Below are positions 33,105 through 54,639 of a DNA stretch of 64,000 bases, one piece after another; position 1 is the first letter of the stretch, and each line of letters begins with the position of its first letter. The position numbers and the translations under genes were made by a program. The notes beneath the pieces were generated by a model. It ran no database searches. It was given only the letters and a program-made list of their open reading frames with translations, and was not told the DNA's origin. The stretch is from Mustelus asterias. Taxonomy: Eukaryota. The DNA lies in the NCBI RefSeq assembly GCF_964213995.1, contig NC_135817.1:59396001-59460000 (forward strand). The letters run 5' to 3'.

Positions 33105-35707
33105 CGCCCAATGCATCCTGGGACCTGTTGGCTGGAAGAATAAAACCTTTGGTAGTACCGACTACAGCTCCCGGCGGCCTCTGCGGCACCAGGCGGCCCA
33201 CGGGATCGGTGGACAACTCTCGCGCGAGAGGCAGCTGACTGTCCCTCTCCCCTCACCCACAGGGTTGAGGCCACCGACTGAATGCTGCAAACAGACGGCA
33301 GTGTTAGGGAAACAGAGTTAGCCTTTGCAGTCCGTATGATTCGTGTTCATCGTCTGATGGTTGTCTTGTATCCCTGCAGTGGAATTTATTTGACGAATTA
33401 GGCCAAATTGACAGATTAGAGACAGAATATTCCGACTGTGGGAGGAAACCCACGCAGATATGGGGAGAACGTGCAAACAGTGATCTAAGGCAGGAATCGA
33501 ACCCGGGTCCCTGGTGCTTTCAGGCAGCAATGCTAACCACTGTGATAGGGATGATAAATTAGAGATTAGGACCGTTTTCCTTGAAGAGAAGGCCAAGAAG
33601 AGATTTGCTAGAGGTGTTCAAAATCATGAGAGACTAGACAGGGTAGATAGGGAGAAACTGTTCCCACTCGTAAAAAGACTGAGAGCGAGAGTGTGCACAT
33701 TTTAAAGCGATTTGCAAAAGAAGCAAAAAGGTTAAGCGCATTGGACATGCTAAATGGCCCCTTTGTATCCAAAGCTGCCTTAGTTAAGTGGATTAGCCAA
33801 GTAATGCATGGGGTTGCAGGGATAGGGTGGGCGGAAAGGCTTGGGTGGGATGCTCTTTCGGAAATTTGGTGCAGACTTGATGGGCTGAATGACCTCCTTC
33901 TGCACTGCAGGGATTCTATGGTTATTACAGACTTGTTTGGCCCATCATGTCTGCACTGGGTCTCCAATGAGCATTATGACTTTGTGCCATTCTACTGTCT
34001 TTTCCCCATACCCCTGCATATTGTTTCTATTCAGATAATCATCTAAAACCTTCTTGAAAACCTCAACTGAAGTTGCCTCCATCACACTTCTGGGCAGTGC
34101 ATTTCAGGCTTGAATCACTTGCTGTGTGTGAAAAAGTTTTTTTCTCACATCACGTTTGCTTCTTTTGCAAATCGCTTTAAATGTGCACACACTCGCTCTC
34201 AGTCTTTTTACGAGTGGGAACAGTTTCTCCCTACCTACCCTCTCTCTCATGATTTTGAACACCTCTAGCAAATCTCCTCTTGGCTTTCTCTTCAAGGAAA
34301 ACTGTCCTAATCTCTAATTTATCTTCATAACTGAAGTTTCTCATCCCTCAAACCATTCTTGTAAACCTCTTCTGCACTCGCTCCAATGTTCTCACATCCT
34401 TCTTGTAGTGTGGTACTCAGAACTGTATGCAATTCTCCCGCTAAGGTCTAACAAGTGTTTTGCATAAGTTCAGTGTAACTTCCATGGTCTTTTATTCTAT
34501 GCCCTTATTACAGTCCAGGAAAATGCATGCTTTATTAACTGCTATCTCCACCCGTCCTGCTATCTCCAATGATCTATGCACATAAACATCCAGGTCGCTC
34601 TGCTCCTGCACTCCCTTAAGAATTGTACCCCTTATTTTATATTGTCTCTCATGTTCTTCCCACCAAAATGCATCACCTCACACTTTTCCGCATTGAACTT
34701 AATCTGTCACTTATCTGCCTGCTTCCCCCAATTTATCTATGTCCTTTTGAAGTTCTACTCTGTCCTCACAATTTACAATGCTTTCAAGCTCCATGCAATC
34801 TGCAAACATTGTAATCTGTCCTCTGTACAACAAGATCTAGATCATAAAACTATATCAATAAAGTAAAAGCAAGTGTCTCAGTACTGACTTCTGAGGACCT
34901 CCACTAAAAACCTTCCCCCAGCTGAAAAATATCTATCGACTATTACTTTCTGCTTCCTATTACTCAGCCAATTTTGTATCCATGTTGCTACTGTCCTTTT
35001 TATTCCATGAGCTACAACTTTTCTCACAAGTTAGTTTTGTGGAACTGTATTGAATGCGTTTTGAAAGTCCATATATACCACATCAACAGCGTTCACCCTT
35101 TCTGTTACCTCTTCAAAAAACTCAAGCAAGTTAGTTAAATGTGATTTTCCCCTTTAGAAATCCATACTGGCTTTTCCTAATCAACCCACTTTTTTTTCCA
35201 TGCGACTACTAATTCTATCCTGAATAATTGTTTCTAGAATCTTCCCCACTACTGAAGTTAAGGTTATTGTGATGTATTTATTTGGTGGCTTGCTGTAGTC
35301 AGATGACCTCTGCCATGAGACACTGATTGGAAACAGCCATGTTACCTAAAGCCTTGAAGGCATGCTTTGAATTAGTAGTGAAAGTAACTTATGAACATCA
35401 TGTGTTTAACTTTAGGCCTCAAGGGGAAGAAGAGTTTATTGATTATTATGTGACTACAGTAGCATGGCTTGCAGATTCTGTTGAATTTAGACAACTTAAA
35501 GATGATCTAATTTAAGCTAGGCTTGTCTTGGGCAAGAGATCCTTCATTGAGAGTATATCTACTGACAGAGGAGAAACTAATTATCAAGAAAATGATTGAC
35601 GTGCAGAAGTGCTGAGGTTGTAAATCATCAGACATATCCATGGCAGAACAGACCAGGCCTTGTCTTAAGCTAATCAATATTCCAGGCCTTAACAGCAGAA
35701 AGATCAC

Positions 35708-36846
35708 AAAGGTCCCTCATGGTAGGCTGGTGCAAAAGGTTGGATCTCATGGGATAAAGGGGGAGGTGGCTAGATGGGTGGAGAACTGGCTTGGTCACAG
35801 AAGACAGAGGGTGGTAGTGGAAGGGTCTTTTTCCGGCTGGAGGCCTGTGACTAGTGGTGTTCCGCAGGGCTCTGTATTGGAACCTCTGCTGTTTGTGATT
35901 TATATAAATGATCTGGAAGGTGTAACTGGGGTGATCAGTAAGTTTGTGGACGACACAAAATTGGCAGCACTTGCAGATAGTGAGGAAAATTGTCAGAAGC
36001 TACAAAAGGATATAAACAGGCTGGAAATTTGGGCAAAGAAATGGCAGATGGAGTTCAATCCTGATAAATGCGAAGTGATGCATTTTGGTAGAAATAATGT
36101 AGGGAGGAGCTATACGATAAATGGCAGAACCATAAAGGGTGTAGATACGCAGAGGGACCTGGGTGTGCAAGTCCACAGATCCTTGAAGGTGACGTCACAG
36201 GTGGAGAAGGTGGTGAAGAAGGCATATGGCATGCTTGCCTTTATAGGATGGGGCATAGAGTATAAAAGTTGGGGTCTGATGTTGCAGATGTATAGAACGT
36301 TGGTTTGGCCACATTTGGAATACTGCGTCCAGTTCTGGTCGCCACACTACCAGAAGGACGTGGAGGCTTTGGAGAGAGTACAGAGGAGGTTTACCAGGAT
36401 GTTGCCTGGTATGGAGGGGCTTAGTTATGAGGAGAGATTGGGTAAACTGGGGTTGTTCTCCCTGGAAAGACGGAGGATGAGGGGAGACTTAATAGAGGTG
36501 TATAAAATTATGAAAGGCATAGATAGGGTGAACGGTGGGAAGCTTTTCCCCAGGTCGGTGGTGACGTTCACGAGGGGTCATAGGTTCAAGGTGAAGGGGG
36601 GGAGGTTTAACACAGATATCAGAAGGACATATTTTACACAGAGGGTGGTGGGGGCCTGGAATACGCTGCCAGGCAAGGTGGTGGAGGCGGACACACTGGG
36701 AACGTTTAAGACTTATCTAGATAGCCATATGAACGGAGTGGGAATGGAGGGATACAAAAGAATGGTCTAGTTTGGACCAGGGAGCGGCACGGGCATGGAG
36801 GGCCGAAGGGCCTGTTCCTGCGCTGTTTTGTTCTTTGTTCTTTGTT
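35708..36846 (+). mobile_element. Young 5'-truncated CR1-clade LINE (RT C-terminal part, open frame)
   Basis: ORF 35640-36770 with [14 protein letters not shown] and HLEYCVQFWSP motifs; 3' tail of tttgttc repeats. Confidence 0.93.
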
Positions 36847-42390: not shown

Positions 42391-43957
42391 TGCTCAGAGT
42401 CCTGGAAAATATCAAGGCTTGGGCTGACAAGTGTTAAGTAACATTCACACCACACGGGCACCAAGCAGTGACCATCTGCAACCAGAACGAATCTCACCCC
42501 ATGACATTCAATGGCATTGCCATAGCTGAACCCCTCCCACCCCTTCAACATTCTGAGAGTTACCACTGACCAGAAACTAAATTGGACTAGTCATATAAAC
42601 AATGTGGTTACAAGGGCAGGTCCGAGGATAGGAGTCTTGCAATGAATAACTCATCTCCTTAAAGGTTCCTTAAACAGCACCTTCCAAACCCATGGCCATT
42701 AACATCTAGAAAGAAAATGGCAGCAGCTGCACAGGAATACCATCACCTGAAATTTCCCCTAAATCCACATACCATCCTGACTTGGAAATATGTCGCATCG
42801 TTGCTGGGTCAAATTTCCAGAACCCCCCTTCCTAACAGTGCTGTGTATATGCCTACACCACATGGACTTCAGCAGTTCAAGAAGGCAGCTCACCACCAGC
42901 TTTTCGAGGGCAATTAGGGATGGGCAGTAAAACCTGATCTAGCCAGCGATGCCCACACATGGATAAATAAACAATCTTGCATACAGGTATACTAGCCACC
43001 AGGGGGAAACATCAGTCTGTATAATTTGTATTGTATTGTTTATCTTTCAATACAAACTGCCAAGTTCAAAAGAATACACATTCAGGTCATTAAAAGATTT
43101 GTGAAAATTATGCTTAAAGTTATTTCATAAGTAAGATTACAAAAAAAACTAACATACTTTTAGTTTGTCTTTTAATGAATCAGCCTGATAATGTTAAAAT
43201 AGTTAGCCATGTTTACATGTTCCTCCATTGCTTCACCCCTCCTCATCTCAGTAACTTTCTACCACCCTTCAGGATCTCTGGGCATCTCCAATTTTGACCT
43301 CTTGTGCATATCTGATTTTCCTCGCTCCACCATTGGTGGCTATGCCTTTATTTGCCAAGACCCTAAACTCTGGAATTCCTTCCTCAACCCTTTCCACCAC
43401 TCCACCACCCTTTCCTCCATTAAGATGCTCCTTAAAATCTACCTCTTTGACCAAGATTTTCAGAACATCACTTAATGTCCCCTTATGGGGCTTGGTGTTA
43501 AATTTTGTTTGAAGCATCTTGAGACATTTTGCTATGCTAAGGGCACCAACTAAATGCAAGTTGTTGCTGCTGTTGTTGACTGATTAGACCTATTTTCCTT
43601 CCATCAATCTACTAGATACTGTCTGAATATCTGTGTAGCTTGGTAGCTGTGAAATTTTACACCATAAGCCATCAAGTAGTTACATCTTCATTTAATTAGA
43701 ATTTTTTTTCTGTATCTTATGAGATTGTCCTTGGGCTTTTATTGGACTGGAGATAGTTGGAATAAGAAAGAGAAGATAAGAATTCAATTGGAACTGCGAC
43801 AGAAAGATATACCTTGCAAGTGCAGCTTCTGGTAAGTTATCTTGTTTTGATTGTACTCCTAGTTTACTATAGGCTATGTCATGCATAGTGAAATTAAGGG
43901 CCAGAAATAATTGAAACTGAATTGTTGTCATCTTGTTTAAAGGTTGAAAAAATACAT

Positions 43958-44835
43958 TTTGTCAAAGCTTTTCATCTTCCAGTCATCAGGACAATCAAAA
44001 GAATACCAATGTCAGGGAAAACAGCAACGTTATACTGTATGAGAAGAGGGTGGCAAGTAGACTCTGGTTGTTGCTATAGAGAATGCACCAATTGATGGTG
44101 ACTGACAGTTAACTGCCAAGCATTTTTGAGATTTAAACCAGGCAGATTGAGTCTGGTCAAGGCATTGTCCTGTGGAATGAACCATGAATGGCTATCACTT
44201 GTTTTGTTTCACTGAAACAGGAGTAAGGTGGTATATGAATTTCAGCGCCAGTGTACTGCTAGGTATGATAGGCCATACGTCCCAAAGACTGGCAGATTGT
44301 ATCAAACAACATGCCCCTTCTTCTGTTTACAACAGCTGAGTATTGACCAGACCCATCCAGCCCTTACTTACAAAACACAATGTCCACCATTAGATGTGAT
44401 TCTGCTATTGGACAACATTTGCAAATAATCCTCAGTGTGTTAAAAATTACGCTGACAAACAATTTCAGATTGTTAGTCTGGTTCACAGTGTGGCACATTT
44501 GTGTGTACTGAAAGCTACATACACGGGACCCTGTTCTTTGCAGATAGAAAGAACACGCACACATATTGCGCCTGTTTCAGCTAGACAAAATAAATGATAG
44601 CCATTCGCAGGTTCATTGACCATTCGGAGTCAAGCTGCCTAGTTTGAATTTCAAACAGTGCTTGGCCATTCACCATTAACTGGTGCATTCTCCATTGCAA
44701 TGTCTCTACCAATCAGAGTTGACTTGCCAACCAATCAGCATCCTCTTCTCAAATTGTATGAAGTTGTTGTTTTCCCTGACATTGGTATTCTTGCAATTGT
44801 CCTGATGAGCGCAAGACAAAAAGCTTTGACAAATA
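43958..44835 (+). mobile_element. Penelope-like element remnant: GIY-YIG endonuclease fragment between inverted pseudo-LTRs
   Basis: 44228-44575 encodes a decayed VVYEFQRQCTARY...IKQH...DSAIGQHL...PVLCR. Segment 43958-44222 is an inverted copy of ~44575-44835, and each end has a CTGATGA hammerhead-like core. Confidence 0.8.
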
Positions 44836-45022
44836 TTTCAGGTGGTTCGAATTTTAACTTACTGGTTTCGAAGAAATACATGCAATAAGTATACACCAAA
44901 GTAGTGATCAGTGTCACTTTAAAGTCAGTTAGAAACCTATCAGTTTTCAGCTTATCTTCACACTTCCACTGTTTCTCCCTGGAGAAACATAACGTCCACC
45001 ACCAATGTCCCTGGAGAAACAG

Positions 45023-45352
45023 AGCGCCTTTTGGCTAAGATCAAGTGTATGGTCGGCACCCCATTGTCGGCCGCACTTGGTCGAGGTCATTGGGTTACGC
45101 TGAGGCTTCATATGTTCCATATGAAGCAATTTTTAAAAGCGGCATCTCGGCCTTTTGGCTAAGATGCAAATGAGCTCAAGTCTTGGAGGAGGATCCTCCC
45201 CCTTCTCCAATCAGCTTGACTCATGTAGATCAGGCCCAGGACAGGGTGGTTTTGGTCTCCCGTCCTGTCTTGTCAGCCTGGATCTGAAATGTCTCAACTT
45301 GTTGAGACTCTGAATTGGATTTGATTTGATTGAATTGGAAAAGTATAAAAAA
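45023..45352 (+). mobile_element. U2 snRNA-headed, A-tailed SINE-like or retrocopy insertion
   Basis: Two exact U2 5' matches (45026-45049 and 45145-45165), multiple hairpins, A-tail, and candidate TSD AAACAG (45017-45022 and 45353-45358). Confidence 0.7.
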
Positions 45353-47659
45353 AAACAGTGGGAGAAGTGATGGAAGAATTCCCAAGTTAATTGTCAGCCT
45401 GTTGAACCAGGTTATAAAGCTTTTTCCATGGTCAATAAGTCCTGCTGTTGACTTGGTCCCGGAGCTTCTGGTCTAGAGTCAGGGACACTACCACCGTGCC
45501 ACAAAACCTTTTTTCTAACGGCAATAGAAACATTAGATGACATATCTGATTGCTTATTTCAGTGTTTGTAGAAATTGTTCTTTGCTGGATCCTGTCCAGT
45601 GGTCTGCTCATTGTTGAAGTATAGTGCCTGTCCACTGACGATATTGAGCCTGTGACAAGCTGGGCTCACTCTTAAGAATTAACCGTATTACAGGAGAGGA
45701 TAGAAAGGAGATTTGTGAGGATGTTGCCAGGATTGTCCAAGATTTACATTCCCTGCACAACAAGAGCATAAATCTGTGAGGAACTGGTCTTCGTAAGTTG
45801 TTTTTTTTCAGCTGATAGCTTCCCAGGTACTGGTGCACACAAGACATTTGAAACAGGAAAATTTCCTTCAAAAAGGTTGTTAACTGCCCAGAATCACAAG
45901 AATGTTTCGGTAATGAAATATTCCCAGAAGCTAAACGAAACATTAACTGAGATCCATTATCTCTTTCTCACACTTGCATAGCCAAGCCTATATTACTTCA
46001 GTGCAAAAGTTCTTTGTAGTAAGATTCCAAACAATTTTAATAAATGTTTCCACAACCAGCACAAGGGTTGCATTCAAGAATTATTCTTGTTCATTCAGCT
46101 GAAGCTCAGGTGGTGTCATTCTTACAACAAATCGGAATAGAACTTTAAAAAGAATAACGATACAAATCGACAATGCATCACATGAGAGACACTGTCACAG
46201 AAATCTCTGTTCATAAGCAACTTAAGAACATGAGTAGGAGGGTAGACCATGCAGCACCTTGAACCTGTTCTGTAATTCAGGTGGAAGGATTCCCATGGTC
46301 ATGGCTAATCTTCAACCTTAATTCCACTTTCCTGCCCGATTCCCATCTCCCTTGATTCCCTCAGTGTTCAAAATTTAATCAATTTCAGCCAAAAACATAT
46401 TTAATGATTTGAGCATCAACAAACCCGTGTCCACCCTGGGTAATGAGGAAAGATTTACGCTCTGACTAAAGAAATTTATTTTCATCTTAGTCCTAAATGG
46501 CCAACCCTTTATCCTGACACTGGCCCATCTTAATAGACTCTTCAGCCGGGGAAACAGTCTCCCAGCTTCTCGCCGAGTGAGTCCCATCATAATTCTATCT
46601 TTTCCAATAGTATCGCCTCTTTTTTTTCTCCTCATCTCCAGAGAGTATTGGTTCATTCTACTCAACCTTGTCCCCTTGGACAGCCTCTCATCCCAGAAAT
46701 CAGTCTGGCCAACTTTGCCGCCCCGTCTCTGAGGCAAGTTTACCCTTCTTTAGATATGGAGACCAAAACTATACACCGTTGTCCAGATGGAGTATCACCA
46801 AAGCCCTGAACATTTGCAGCAATACCTACTTGCTTCAATTCTTTGCAATAGAGGTCAACATATAATTTACTTTCCTTATAGTTGCTGTGCCTATATGTTA
46901 ACGTTCTGTGATTCATGCGCAATGATGCCCAAATGCCTTTAAACACCGACATTTAATAATTTTTAGGTTTTATTTGGTTTGCTATTCTTCCTACCATGCC
47001 TCTTCACATTGTACTTCAGCAGCCACCCTCTTGTCTGCTCACTTAACCTATCTATGTCCCTTGGCAAATTTTGTGTTCTCCTCGCATCTTGTTTTCCCGC
47101 CTAGTTATCTATCATCAGAAAACTTAGATATATTACACTAAATCAATTAATTTAAGTCATTATAGATAAAATATTGTAAGTGTCTGAGGCTCCAGCACTG
47201 ATTCTTGCAATAGCCCACTAGCAACAGCCAGCCAATTTGAAAATGATTCATCTATTTCTACTGCATTTTCTGTCATCTAACCAATCCTTCCCATCCTAAT
47301 ATATTGCCCCAAACCCATGAGCCCATATGTAGTAGACTTACTTTTTGTGTCTCACCTTATTGAATGACTTTTGGAAATTCAAATATGTTAGTCATTGGCT
47401 CTCTACTTGCTAATTATATTCTCAAAGATTGTCAAATATAATTTCCCTTTCATAGTGATATATTACTCTCATTTAATTTTCTCATCATTAATCTTAGGTC
47501 ACCCTTTGTTGGTGTCCAAAATGCTTCAAATCCTCTTGCTCACCACTTTTTGTGATAATGCAAAATTCTATTGTGATCACTCTGTCCCAGCGAATTCCTT
47601 ACTATGGGTTCAAGAAGTCAACTCACCACCACATTCTCAAGGGGAATTAGTTTTATCTA

Positions 47660-50837: not shown

Positions 50838-53800
50838 ATGGAGCAACTCCTGAAACCTGACAAATTGGATTTGGATCCGCAGGCAGTTGGCGCCTCTGAC
50901 TCTTTTGATCACTGGCTGCGCTGTTTTGAGACCCTCCTCCTCCATCGTCGTAACAGACATCGACAAACTACATGTGCTCCACGTCCGCGTCAGCGCTCAC
51001 GTCTTCGCGCTGATCCGAGACGCAGAGACTTACCAGGAGGAAATCGATCTCCTCAAGAGCCAGTACAACCGGCAGCCGAACAAGATCTACTCCAGTCACC
51101 TATTGGCCACTCGCAGACAGCAGCCCGGGGAATCGACTGAGCAATTCCTGCGTGCACTCGGCAGAGCCTGCAACTGCAAGGCCATTTCAGCCACCCAGAA
51201 CGCCGACGACCTGATCAGAGATGCCTTTGTCGCGGGCATCAGGTCGACCTATATCTGGCAGCGTCTACTGGAACAAGGTGGGCTGGACCTGAAGAAAACT
51301 GTGGAACTTGCCGGCTCACTGGAGGTAGCATTCCGGAACCTCGAGGCCTACAGCCCCGACCACGAGGGCGCACCGTGGACACCGCGACCGCAGCCATCGC
51401 TGTACCCGGGAGGGCCGCAAACCTACGCCACGCCCCGTCCCGAAGCCGAACTGACCACTGCGGCAATCCCTGGAGGCCCCAGGTGCTACTTCTGCGGCCT
51501 GGAGAAGCACCCACGACGACACTGCCCGGCGAAAGATGCGATCTGCTCTGGCTGCGGTAAGAAGGGTCATTACCTGAATGTTTGCAGGACAAAATCGGCT
51601 CCCAGGCCCAGCAGCACCGCATGCGATCCGCAGGAGGGACTGCCTTCGACGCCATCGACCGGGTGCGATCCGCGGGTGCTGCCATCTTGGACACCATCAG
51701 CCACGTGTGACCCACGGGAGCCGCCATCTTGGGTGACGCCAGCCGAGTCATGGGGGCAGCCATTTTGGGAACCGTCCACCGCATCGCCTAATCCGACAGT
51801 GGCCTCGGTTGCGTTGGACCAGTCCAGGCCTTACCAGCTCGCCTGGTTGATGATGGACATCAAGGTAAACGGCCACACTACTAACTACTTATTTGACAGT
51901 GGGAGTACGGTGAGTTTCATCCACCCTAACACGGTGAGGCGCTTAGCACTGCCAATGCAGCAATTAATCTCTATGGCTTCGACGTCCCAGTCAGTGAATG
52001 TCCTCTGACTGTACAGGGCACGGTGTACGACAAGTGCAAGCTCCTCGTGCTGCCACAGCTCTGTGCTGCCGTACTACTGGGGCTAGATTTCATGTGCCAC
52101 CTTGGGAGCGTCACTATGGTGTATAATGGGCCTTTCCCCCCAATCTCCGTCCAAATTCCACAGCTAACAGACCAGCCACCATGCACCACCTGTGGTCTCT
52201 CGACCCTCAAAGTCGCCCCTCCCTCGCTCTTTGAACACCTCACCCCCAACTGCAAGCCCATTGTCATGAAAAGCAGACGGTACAGCGCTGGAGATAGAGC
52301 ATTCATCAAGTCCGAGGTGCGACGCCTCCTGGGGGAGGGGATCATTGAGGCCAGTACCAGTCCCTGGAGAGCCCAAGTGGTGGTTGTCAAAACTGGGGAG
52401 AAACTTCGCATGGTCATTGACTACAGTCAGACCATCAACCGATACATGCAGCTGGATGCGTATCCCCTTCTCCGCGTATCTGACATGGTCAATCAGATTG
52501 CACAATATCGGGTGTTCTCCACCATTGATTTGAAGTCTGCATACCACCAGCTCCCTATCCGCCCGGAAGACCGCCAATACACTGCCTTCGAGGCGGATGG
52601 CCGTCTCTACCACTTCCTTCGGCGTCACCAATGGGGTCTCGGTTTTCCAGCGTGAGATGGACCGAATGGTGGACCAGAACGGGTTGCGGGCCACTTTCCC
52701 GTACCTGGATAACGTCACCATCTGCGGCCACGATCAGCAGGACCACGACGCCAACCTCCAAAAATTCCTCCACACTGCGGCACTCCTCAACCTGACCTAC
52801 AATAAGGAGAAGTGTGTATTCCGCACGTGCCGCCTCGCCATTCTTGGTTGTGTTGTGGAGAACGGGGTCATCGGCCCCGACCCCGACCGCATGCATCCCC
52901 TCCTGGAACTTCCCCTCCCCACCACCCTCAAAGCGCTGAGGAGATGCCTAGGCTTCTTCTCATACTACGCCCAGTGGGTCCCCAATTATGCGGACAAAGC
53001 CTGTCCGCTCATCAAATCCACATCTTTTCCCCTAGCGGCGGAGGCCCGGCTGGCCTTTGACCGCATCAAAGTGGATATCGCGAAGGCCACGATGCACGCC
53101 GTGGACGAATCCACCCCATTCCAGGTGGAGAGCGATGCGTCTGATTTTGCCCTAGCCGCCACTCTTAACCAGGCGGGCAGACCCGTGGCCGCCTTCTCGC
53201 TCACCCTCCAGGGCCCTGAAATTCGACACTCCTCTGTCGAAAAAGAGGCACAAGCCATTGTGGAGGCTGTGCGACACTGGCACCACTACTTAGCTGGCAA
53301 ATGGTTCACCCTGCTCACGGACCAACGGTCCGTTGCCTTTATGTTCAGTAACGCACAGCGGGGCAAAATCAAGAACGATAAGATTTTGAGGTGGAGGATC
53401 GAGTTGCCACCTACAATTACGACATTTTAGACCGGCCTGGGAAGCTCAATGAGCCCCCAGACGCCCTGTCCCGGGGGACCTGTGCCAGCGTGAACCTAGA
53501 CTGGTTACAGACCCTCCACGATGACCTCTGCCACCCGGGGGTCACCAGGTTCTTCCATTTCATCAAGGCCCGGAACCTGCCCTATTCCATTGAGGAAGTC
53601 AGGTCTGTAACCAGGCACTGCCAAGTCTGTGCGGAGTGCAAGCCGCACTTCTACCGGCCGGGCAGAGCGCACCTCATCAAAGCCACCCGCCCTTTCGAAC
53701 GCCTGAGCGTTGACTTCAAAGGTCCCCTCCCCTCCTCTGACCGCAACGTATACTTCCTCAACATCGTTGATGAGTATTCGCGGTTCCCCTTTGCTATTCC

Positions 53801-54639
53801 CTGCCCGGATATGACCTCTGCCACGGTCGTCAGGGCCCTGCACAGCCTCTTCACCCTGTTTGGTTTCCCAGCTATATTCATAGCGACCGGGGTTCCTCTT
53901 TTATGAGTGACGAGCTGCGCCAGTACCTACTCTCCAAAGGCATAGCCTCGAGTAGGACCACCAGCTACAACCCCAGGGGGAACGGACAGGTGGAGAGGGA
54001 GAATGCGACAGTCTGGAAGGCCGTTTTATTAGCTCTCCGGTCTAAGGGTCTTCCAGTCTCCTGCTGGCAAGAGGTCCTCCCTGATGCGCTACACTCAATT
54101 AGGTCACTACTGTGCATGGCTGCCAACACCACCCCTCATGAACGAATGTTTGTTTTCCCCAGGAAGTCCTCCTCTGGGACCTCACTACCGTCGTGGCTGA
54201 CGTCCCCTGGTCCTGTCCTGTCCTGTCCTCCGGAAGTATGTGCGCACCCATAAGTCGGACCCCCCTGGTCGAAACGGTCTGGCTCCTCCATGCCAACCCC
54301 CAATACGCCTATGTGGCATATCACGACGGTCAGGAGGACACGGTCTCCATTCGCGATCTGGCCCCCGCAGGTACTACGTCCCATGGCCCCTCACCCCCAG
54401 CTCCCAACGTCGTCCATGATGCACCAGAGTCGCAGCACGCTCATTTAGCCCCCGTGTACGGCACGCCTGAGCCCCAGGAGCAGCCTCCACTCACCCGGCA
54501 GTCTGAAGGCGCTACGGACGGCTTCACCAGTTATGGACTGGCGTCTGACCCATCACCGCGGCCTCCTGAACCGGCACCACAGCTGACATTGCGGCAATCG
54601 CAGCGGCAGATCAAGCCCCCAGAGAGACTGAACTTGTAA
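50838..54639 (+). pseudogene. Gypsy gag-pol, broken into ~7 ORF pieces
   Basis: ATG of MEQLLKPDKLDLDP at 50838. Consecutive domain-bearing ORFs at 50887-52008, 52023-52655, 52597-53430, 53391-53906, 53903-54253 and 54193-54639 lie in shifting frames. Confidence 0.9.

Follow-up and report, generated by a model that had tools for sequence, protein, structure and literature searches.

Short retroposons headed by a spliceosomal snRNA have been described as SINEU-1, -2 and -3; the available text of their report records none outside crocodilians and names Mariner-N4_AMi as the preferred target (Kojima 2015, PMC4494074). The same text gives no data on where their transcription starts, and transcription without an internal promoter is left open there. 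Keno and Utopia are LINEs that target U2 genes, with a 3′ flank beginning at U2 nt 39 (available text of PMC4640811). Dependence on an RNA gene is also described for the R2 and R2/R1 SIDEs of Drosophila, which, in the available text of PMC3414825, are non-autonomous, are placed by a site-specific LINE in a multicopy RNA gene and rely on its transcription. In the open literature searched, which included the available text of PMC5753468, PMC5786205 and PMC5381603, neither a U2-headed shark family nor source copies embedded in U2 genes were found described; Repbase, Dfam and subscription papers lie outside this scope.

We analyzed a stretch of 64,000 nucleotides of Mustelus asterias (contig NC_135817.1, positions 59,396,001 to 59,460,000; hereafter the window), in which a first-pass annotation had pointed to a structured, A-tailed element with two U2 heads. 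The element is a young 5′-truncated copy of a dispersed U2-headed SINE-like retroposon, not a variant snRNA. It occupies about 330 bp in the 45023-45352 region, on the forward strand like all parts given below, and sequence inspection found every feature described by the annotation in its place: the hairpins with the 10-bp stem, the nested stems and the stem at 45291-45308, the tail and the 6-bp duplication. The first U2 head (45026-45049) is identical to nt 12-35 of the genome's own U2 gene at 24 of 24 positions and is truncated at its 5′ end, the starts in the family lying at U2 nt 1-12. The second U2 piece, annotated as 45145-45165 and U2 nt ~7-27, runs in fact from 45142 to 45165 and matches U2 nt 4-27 at 23 of 24 positions. 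The candidate target-site duplication (left copy 45017-45022, right copy 45353-45358) is short and hence weak evidence taken alone; three bases at 45023-45025 match neither the duplication nor U2 and were likely added at the junction.

The element is predicted to fold into a row of hairpins with a free energy of −143.6 kcal/mol (z −8.85), and 0 of 100 shuffled sequences were equally stable. Hairpin 1 (45026-45095) is a long predicted stem between the first U2 head and an antisense-like sequence downstream of it, with an apex that varies by subfamily; in the predicted fold it would mask those U2 bases which are engaged by U6 and by the branch point. Hairpin 2 (45105-45127) consists of 10 bp between 45105-45114 and 45118-45127, and is longer in younger subfamilies. 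A T/A linker (45128-45138), free of a canonical Sm site, joins the two halves. The right half opens with the second U2 head, predicted to form an extended stem-loop I (45142-45167), and continues with hairpin 4 (45170-45224), hairpin 5 (45226-45286), which is an old duplicate of hairpin 4, and hairpin 6 (45291-45308; a predicted 7-bp stem closed by a 4-nt loop). The short-repeat tail (45309-45346) ends in a 7-base motif common to the 3′ end of the Keno-type LINE described below, and the last three As of the A-tail (45347-45355) are common to the right duplication. The first-pass annotation had let the U2 match cover stem-loop I; this holds for the second head, which alone forms that structure in the fold, but not for the first, which pairs downstream. 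Ten bases inside hairpin 5 (45271-45280) recur some 60 bases upstream of genes of the major U2 type; this identity is absent from the oldest copies and is possibly due to chance.

Other traces of mobile DNA were observed in the window. A weak tRNA-like match (18 bits) lies on the reverse strand at 45454-45508, 100 bp downstream of the element, and is probably the head of a tRNA-SINE. A LINE-type RT fragment occupies 35616-36767 (forward strand), and a broken LTR-retroelement pol, with protease, RT, RNase H and integrase in several frames, lies at 50854-54250 (forward strand).

The element belongs to a large family. In the 3.68 Gb of genome searched, an internal 20-mer made of second-head and element-specific bases had at least 5,423 exact matches (control, 0), so the element is no single copy, and the best 40 of 2,618 candidate places were 97-100% identical over about 330 bp. 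A 26-mer specific for the subfamily of the window copy, the youngest, gave 106 matches. We aligned 72 distinct near-full-length copies, 73-100% identical to the window copy, and they form a ladder of successive subfamilies. Their 5′ ends fall at U2 nt 1-12, the match reaching nt 1 in 10 of the 72, and target-site duplications of at least 10 bp flank 34 of the 72, against 25 of 596 controls with mismatched flanks. The reading of the element as a dimeric, U2-headed mobile RNA, an snRNA-derived SINE, is thus borne out by thousands of copies with shared ends, duplications and subfamilies. The window copy does show the annotated break in its branch-point recognition sequence, but this break is not general: it is a subfamily trait found in 12 of the 72 copies, whereas the U2 match extends to nt 37 in 51 of them and the whole branch-point motif is kept in 27. 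Related sequence occurs in other organisms: of four sequencing runs guessed to be RNA, three yielded contigs that cover parts of the element, which points to relatives in three further organisms and is no proof of transcription.

Some individual loci deserve mention. At C192, 41-147 kb (L014-L020), one family copy has been amplified seven times within a tandem unit of 15.7-18.5 kb. This array was considered as a source locus and rejected: Rfam detected no RNA gene over 20 kb, and the copy is not preceded by upstream DNA of U2; we read it as an amplified insertion. Two further copies (L027, L075) are inserted in reverse in older copies, within the 3′ arm of their hairpin 1; on its reverse strand, this arm looks like the U2 target site.

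The conservation of the hairpins was evaluated on 50 of the 72 copies. Across 72 stem pairs, 98.5% of the cells are paired and both sides have changed in a single pair; RNAalifold likewise found one two-sided change among 68 pairs. Classical covariation is therefore thin. A comparison within the family says more: changes shared by at least three copies keep pairing in 27 of 47 cases as compared with 32 of 104 private changes (p 0.002), with the reservation that a shared change does not count as several independent events. Folding of ten representative copies gave z values of −3.0 to −9.6, and the duplicate relation of hairpins 4 and 5 was recovered in three of three old copies (p 0.002 each, against 500 shuffles). 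Selection probably acts on the hairpins at the level of the RNA.

A strong and maintained structure would also fit an element retrocopied from a functional small RNA of the host, such as the variant spliceosomal RNA proposed in the first-pass annotation. The left half of the oldest copies bears in addition a weak likeness to U4 nt 9-74 (p 0.015-0.03), seen in four of eight copies, which are the four oldest and related to one another; in the window copy the likeness has a p of 0.15, and sense U1 modules were found in 0 of 8 copies. The element was scored with the canonical consensus motifs of the Sm site, the A box and the B box. The tract that had been annotated as Sm-site-like is not followed by G in any of the 72 copies, A standing there in 70, so that a canonical Sm site occurs in 0 of 72. 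An Rfam search of 43000-47500 at E values up to 10 returned within the element a 20-nt U2 piece alone, and thus no full-length Rfam match; the scan of the whole window at gathering thresholds gave 0 matches. Many subfamilies have turned over rapidly, and no conserved single gene was found. These data make a functional host RNA extremely improbable as the origin of the element.

A perfect octamer, which we take to be an snRNA enhancer motif, lies at 45164-45171, some 190 bases short of the 3′ end, and is present in 68 of the 72 copies. Family copies are also clustered: 9 of the 99 gaps between listed copies are shorter than 500 bp, with 0.08 expected. The family might accordingly carry a promoter of its own, the octamer with downstream sequence driving the next tandem copy, or else a Pol III promoter. 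The octamer, however, overlaps the second-head stem, and this stem could by itself account for its conservation; tandem family pairs often have one common duplication, so that re-use of a nick site accounts for them. No B box was found in the element, which has one A-box-like match and four runs of at least four T, and this argues against Pol III. We consider an own promoter very unlikely.

The U2 genes of this genome are arranged in arrays on C24. A LINE with two ORFs is inserted into U2 in one array unit; the flank on its 3′ side is at nt 38, and the duplication is 20 bp long. Its own head corresponds to U2 nt 5-35, and its 3′ end has 7-12 bases in common with the end of the family. The Pfam domains comprise ZCCHC3-like, zinc-knuckle (ORF1), APE endonuclease, RT and zf-RVT, and the closest solved structure is that of L1 ORF2. 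An intact ORF2 of 1,135 amino acids is present, and all 150 copies scored, from 5,565 candidates, are 94-100% identical in protein. The LINE is young, and it is assigned to the Keno type by its insertion site and its ORF and domain make-up rather than by RT phylogeny. It does not behave as strictly U2-specific, since most of the scored copies are dispersed outside U2 genes. Among 32 LINE 3′ ends outside the C24 array, six adjoin or lie in a family copy and one lies in U2.

The U2 loci hold further LINE-related arrangements. At C24, 44.81-44.94 Mb (L078), 15 tandem units of 8,035 bp each contain an intact U2 gene and a LINE-interrupted U2; the LINE there is broken by a 351-bp insertion and by frameshifts, and is still amplified with the array. 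At C24, 43.02-43.056 Mb (L080, L162, L164, L166, L167), U2-head repeats stand in place of the LINE target (about U2 nt 38-47) in several of the 1,833-bp units that make up the major U2 array; candidate readings are target-destroyed variants or scars of failed insertions. At C1418, 78.7-87.5 kb (L123, L309-L312), a full-length LINE copy lies between U4 genes, in the spacer.

Family copies also occur within U2 genes. Where the major array ends, a copy that has an internal deletion and no second head is joined to the U2 upstream region at +1, and a second copy lies between a LINE end and U2 nt 38-191. An A-run joined to U2 from nt 38 onward occurs at 25 genome sites. Ten of these lie outside the 8,035-bp array and are preceded by the family in three cases, by LINE ends in six and by other sequence in one. 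Family copies with U2 nt 38 as their 3′ flank occur twice where the major array ends, once in a cluster of a second U2 type, U2B, and four times in displaced U2B units. With fewer than 100 U2 targets, at least 5,423 insertions and 7.4 billion strand positions, about 0.0001 such cases are expected by chance, against the three in place and the four displaced. The promoter of the major U2 genes has 60 exact sites, and among those read one leads into the family, in an internally deleted copy.

U2B is a second full-length U2 type (175.5 bits) arranged in 448-bp units at C21, 28.05-28.08 Mb (L203-L214). Its 3′ half and its upstream region differ from those of the major U2, and four intact genes were found, amid many LINE insertions. 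The C21 cluster is of small size, part of it is inverted and one end is truncated, so that it may itself be displaced; the true U2B array may be incompletely assembled. With one mismatch allowed, no octamer was found upstream of either U2 type, and we infer the promoter elements of U2B from their position.

The U2B upstream region could be traced to dispersed family copies. Two patterns taken from it matched 25 sites: four intact U2B genes, five LINE copies, 15 family copies and one repeated U2 5′ piece. Eleven of the 15 family sites carry 12-262 nt of U2B upstream DNA; the other four have merely 7-8 matching bases and, being selected by the pattern, carry little weight. Several of these copies are bounded by target-site duplications: a copy on C6 has 93 nt of upstream DNA and a 16-bp duplication, one on C7 has 36 nt and 13 bp, that on C118/C158 (one event) 13 nt and 18 bp, and that on C14 8 nt and 12 bp, while on C2 a copy with 153 nt belongs to a run of tandem copies surrounded by a 10-bp duplication. 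C14 also contains a 1,660-bp retrocopy made of U2B parts, spacers and three family copies, which ends in the A-tail of the family and has an 18-bp duplication, and a U2B unit on C1 terminates with the tail of a LINE and has a duplication of 10 bp. No clear duplication was seen at two dispersed copies (C23, C75) or at the C8 unit. The U2B-carrying copies belong to different subfamilies, and the U2B flank is present in only about a dozen of the at least 5,423 copies. Duplication-bounded copies with U2B upstream DNA indicate that source RNAs came from U2 loci. They show that RNAs from family copies in U2B loci were retrotransposed across several subfamilies, some of them after reading through several units. 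The 5′ ends piled at nt 1-12, together with the rarity of upstream extensions, suggest that transcription would initiate at U2 +1.

The model argued for the crocodilian elements in the available text of PMC4494074 would place the sources anywhere in the genome: copies would be read through from unrelated flanking promoters, their U2 heads would arise by template switching onto U2 snRNA, and the copies in U2 genes would be a side branch. Several U2B-carrying copies indeed have an extra U2 5′ piece in front, and in some copies the head has been swapped at the second U2 piece (L300, L248/L249). The latter two, at C1, 112.24 Mb, are chimeras in which an old left half of the family passes, at the second head, into about 95 nt of U2B, followed by unrelated sequence. 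Moreover, the youngest subfamily had no U2-embedded source among the sites read, a copy of the window subfamily standing at a U2 start in 0 of the 25 U2B-upstream sites and in none of the major-array promoter sites read. The head-body junction speaks against template switching, since it is fixed within each subfamily and is one and the same in the 106 youngest copies; the head was thus in the template. Unrelated flanking promoters agree poorly with U2B DNA being the only recurrent 5′ extension seen, and with the lack of any unique 5′ flank common to copies among the 72. On balance this model is unlikely for the shark family, and U2 loci are preferred as the origin of its RNAs.

The relation of the family to the Keno-type LINE was then considered. 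The first-pass annotation had suggested a non-autonomous derivative of a U2-targeting LINE; the data support a helper relationship but not descent. Six family copies compared with two LINE sequences matched them at the U2 head alone, and a body devoid of LINE homology means that the family is not a deletion derivative (SIDE type) of this LINE; the tail comparison yields the few common 3′-terminal bases and no homology in the body. Both use the same U2 site. Their duplications overlap in length (8-20 bp for the family, 7-21 bp for the LINE), and LINE-family tandem pairs with one common duplication occur. The nick sites differ: G-pyrimidine precedes the nick-side A at 19 of 28 family sites (background 14%), as it does at the U2 site, and at 2 of 18 LINE sites, and a second sample, of the youngest family copies, gave 3 of 11. 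This difference in consensus, stricter in the family than in the dispersed LINE copies, is a point against the LINE as a simple helper. It would fit transcription from U2 loci with a different LINE, another Tx1 or an L1 lineage, as the main mobiliser; the genome contains at least one other U2-inserting LINE 3′ end, and the scored sample comprised 150 of the 5,565 LINE candidates. Besides the common site, duplication lengths and tandem pairs, such a mobiliser has to be reconciled with the fact that the same U2B units were transduced both with LINE ends and with family ends, and we judge it to be decidedly unlikely. The Keno-type LINE remains the preferred helper.

By its features, the family falls within the SINEU class, a likeness that is set apart from the body sequence of the crocodilian elements: it is a short non-coding, A-tailed retroposon with an snRNA head, duplications and a shared structure; it has internal T-runs and no internal Pol III promoter, as judged with consensus motifs; and it has targets in common with a Tx1-type LINE, placed otherwise than by phylogeny. 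As with SINEU and Tx1-Mar in the available text of PMC4494074, the head is U2-derived, U2 pieces are repeated, the length is below 500 bp, A-tails and duplications are present, tandem insertions have a common duplication, T-runs are internal and the helper LINE is itself snRNA-headed. Unlike SINEU as described in that text, the shark family enters U2 genes at the Keno site, has daughters that carry U2-locus DNA, was recently active and is strongly structured. With Keno and Utopia it has in common the insertion site (nt 38/39 here), and the LINE has a Keno-like APE endonuclease and a 20-bp duplication like that of reptile Utopia (available text of PMC4640811 and PMC4494074); in contrast to them, the element is non-coding, has the head and few tail bases in common with the LINE, and the LINE here lies mostly outside U2 genes. 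The R2 SIDEs are a mechanistic analogue in their placement and their dependence on an RNA gene, but the available text of PMC3414825 describes them as LINE deletion products with a 5′ ribozyme, in rDNA. The shark element takes its head from the host RNA itself, has no LINE-derived body or known ribozyme, and is found genome-wide.

Relatives embedded in U2 genes at nt 38/39 are, as we read these comparisons, quite likely the source of the family, probably by way of the U2 promoter, with the Keno-type LINE probably supplying the enzymes for cutting and copying. The LINE endonuclease would nick loosely at many genomic sites and precisely at nt 38/39 of the U2 gene. A copy landing in a U2 gene would have its head replace, or follow, the first 39 bases of the gene, and would thereby come to stand behind the U2 promoter. 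RNA would then arise from this promoter, or by read-through from the U2 gene one unit upstream. Reverse transcription would be primed at an internal A-run, and the daughters would be scattered, mostly promoterless and dead, the window copy included. Each new landing in a U2 gene could found the next subfamily. With less assurance, we lean towards a fuller reading, a promoter-capture SINE. Its head would be the first 39 bases of U2; the few copies returned by the LINE and fused to a U2 promoter would be the only sources; the succession of subfamilies would record invasions of U2 genes; read-through RNAs would export whole U2B units with their promoter DNA to new chromosomes; and the self-pairing stem would hide the spliceosomal head.

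In the available text of PMC4494074, snRNA-headed SINEs are reported only from crocodilians; the shark family is recent, abundant and outside that group. Its displaced copies name source loci, which makes the question of transcription testable with defined primers. Through this family, a site-specific LINE and a dispersed SINE are connected with the turnover of arrays of spliceosomal U2 genes.
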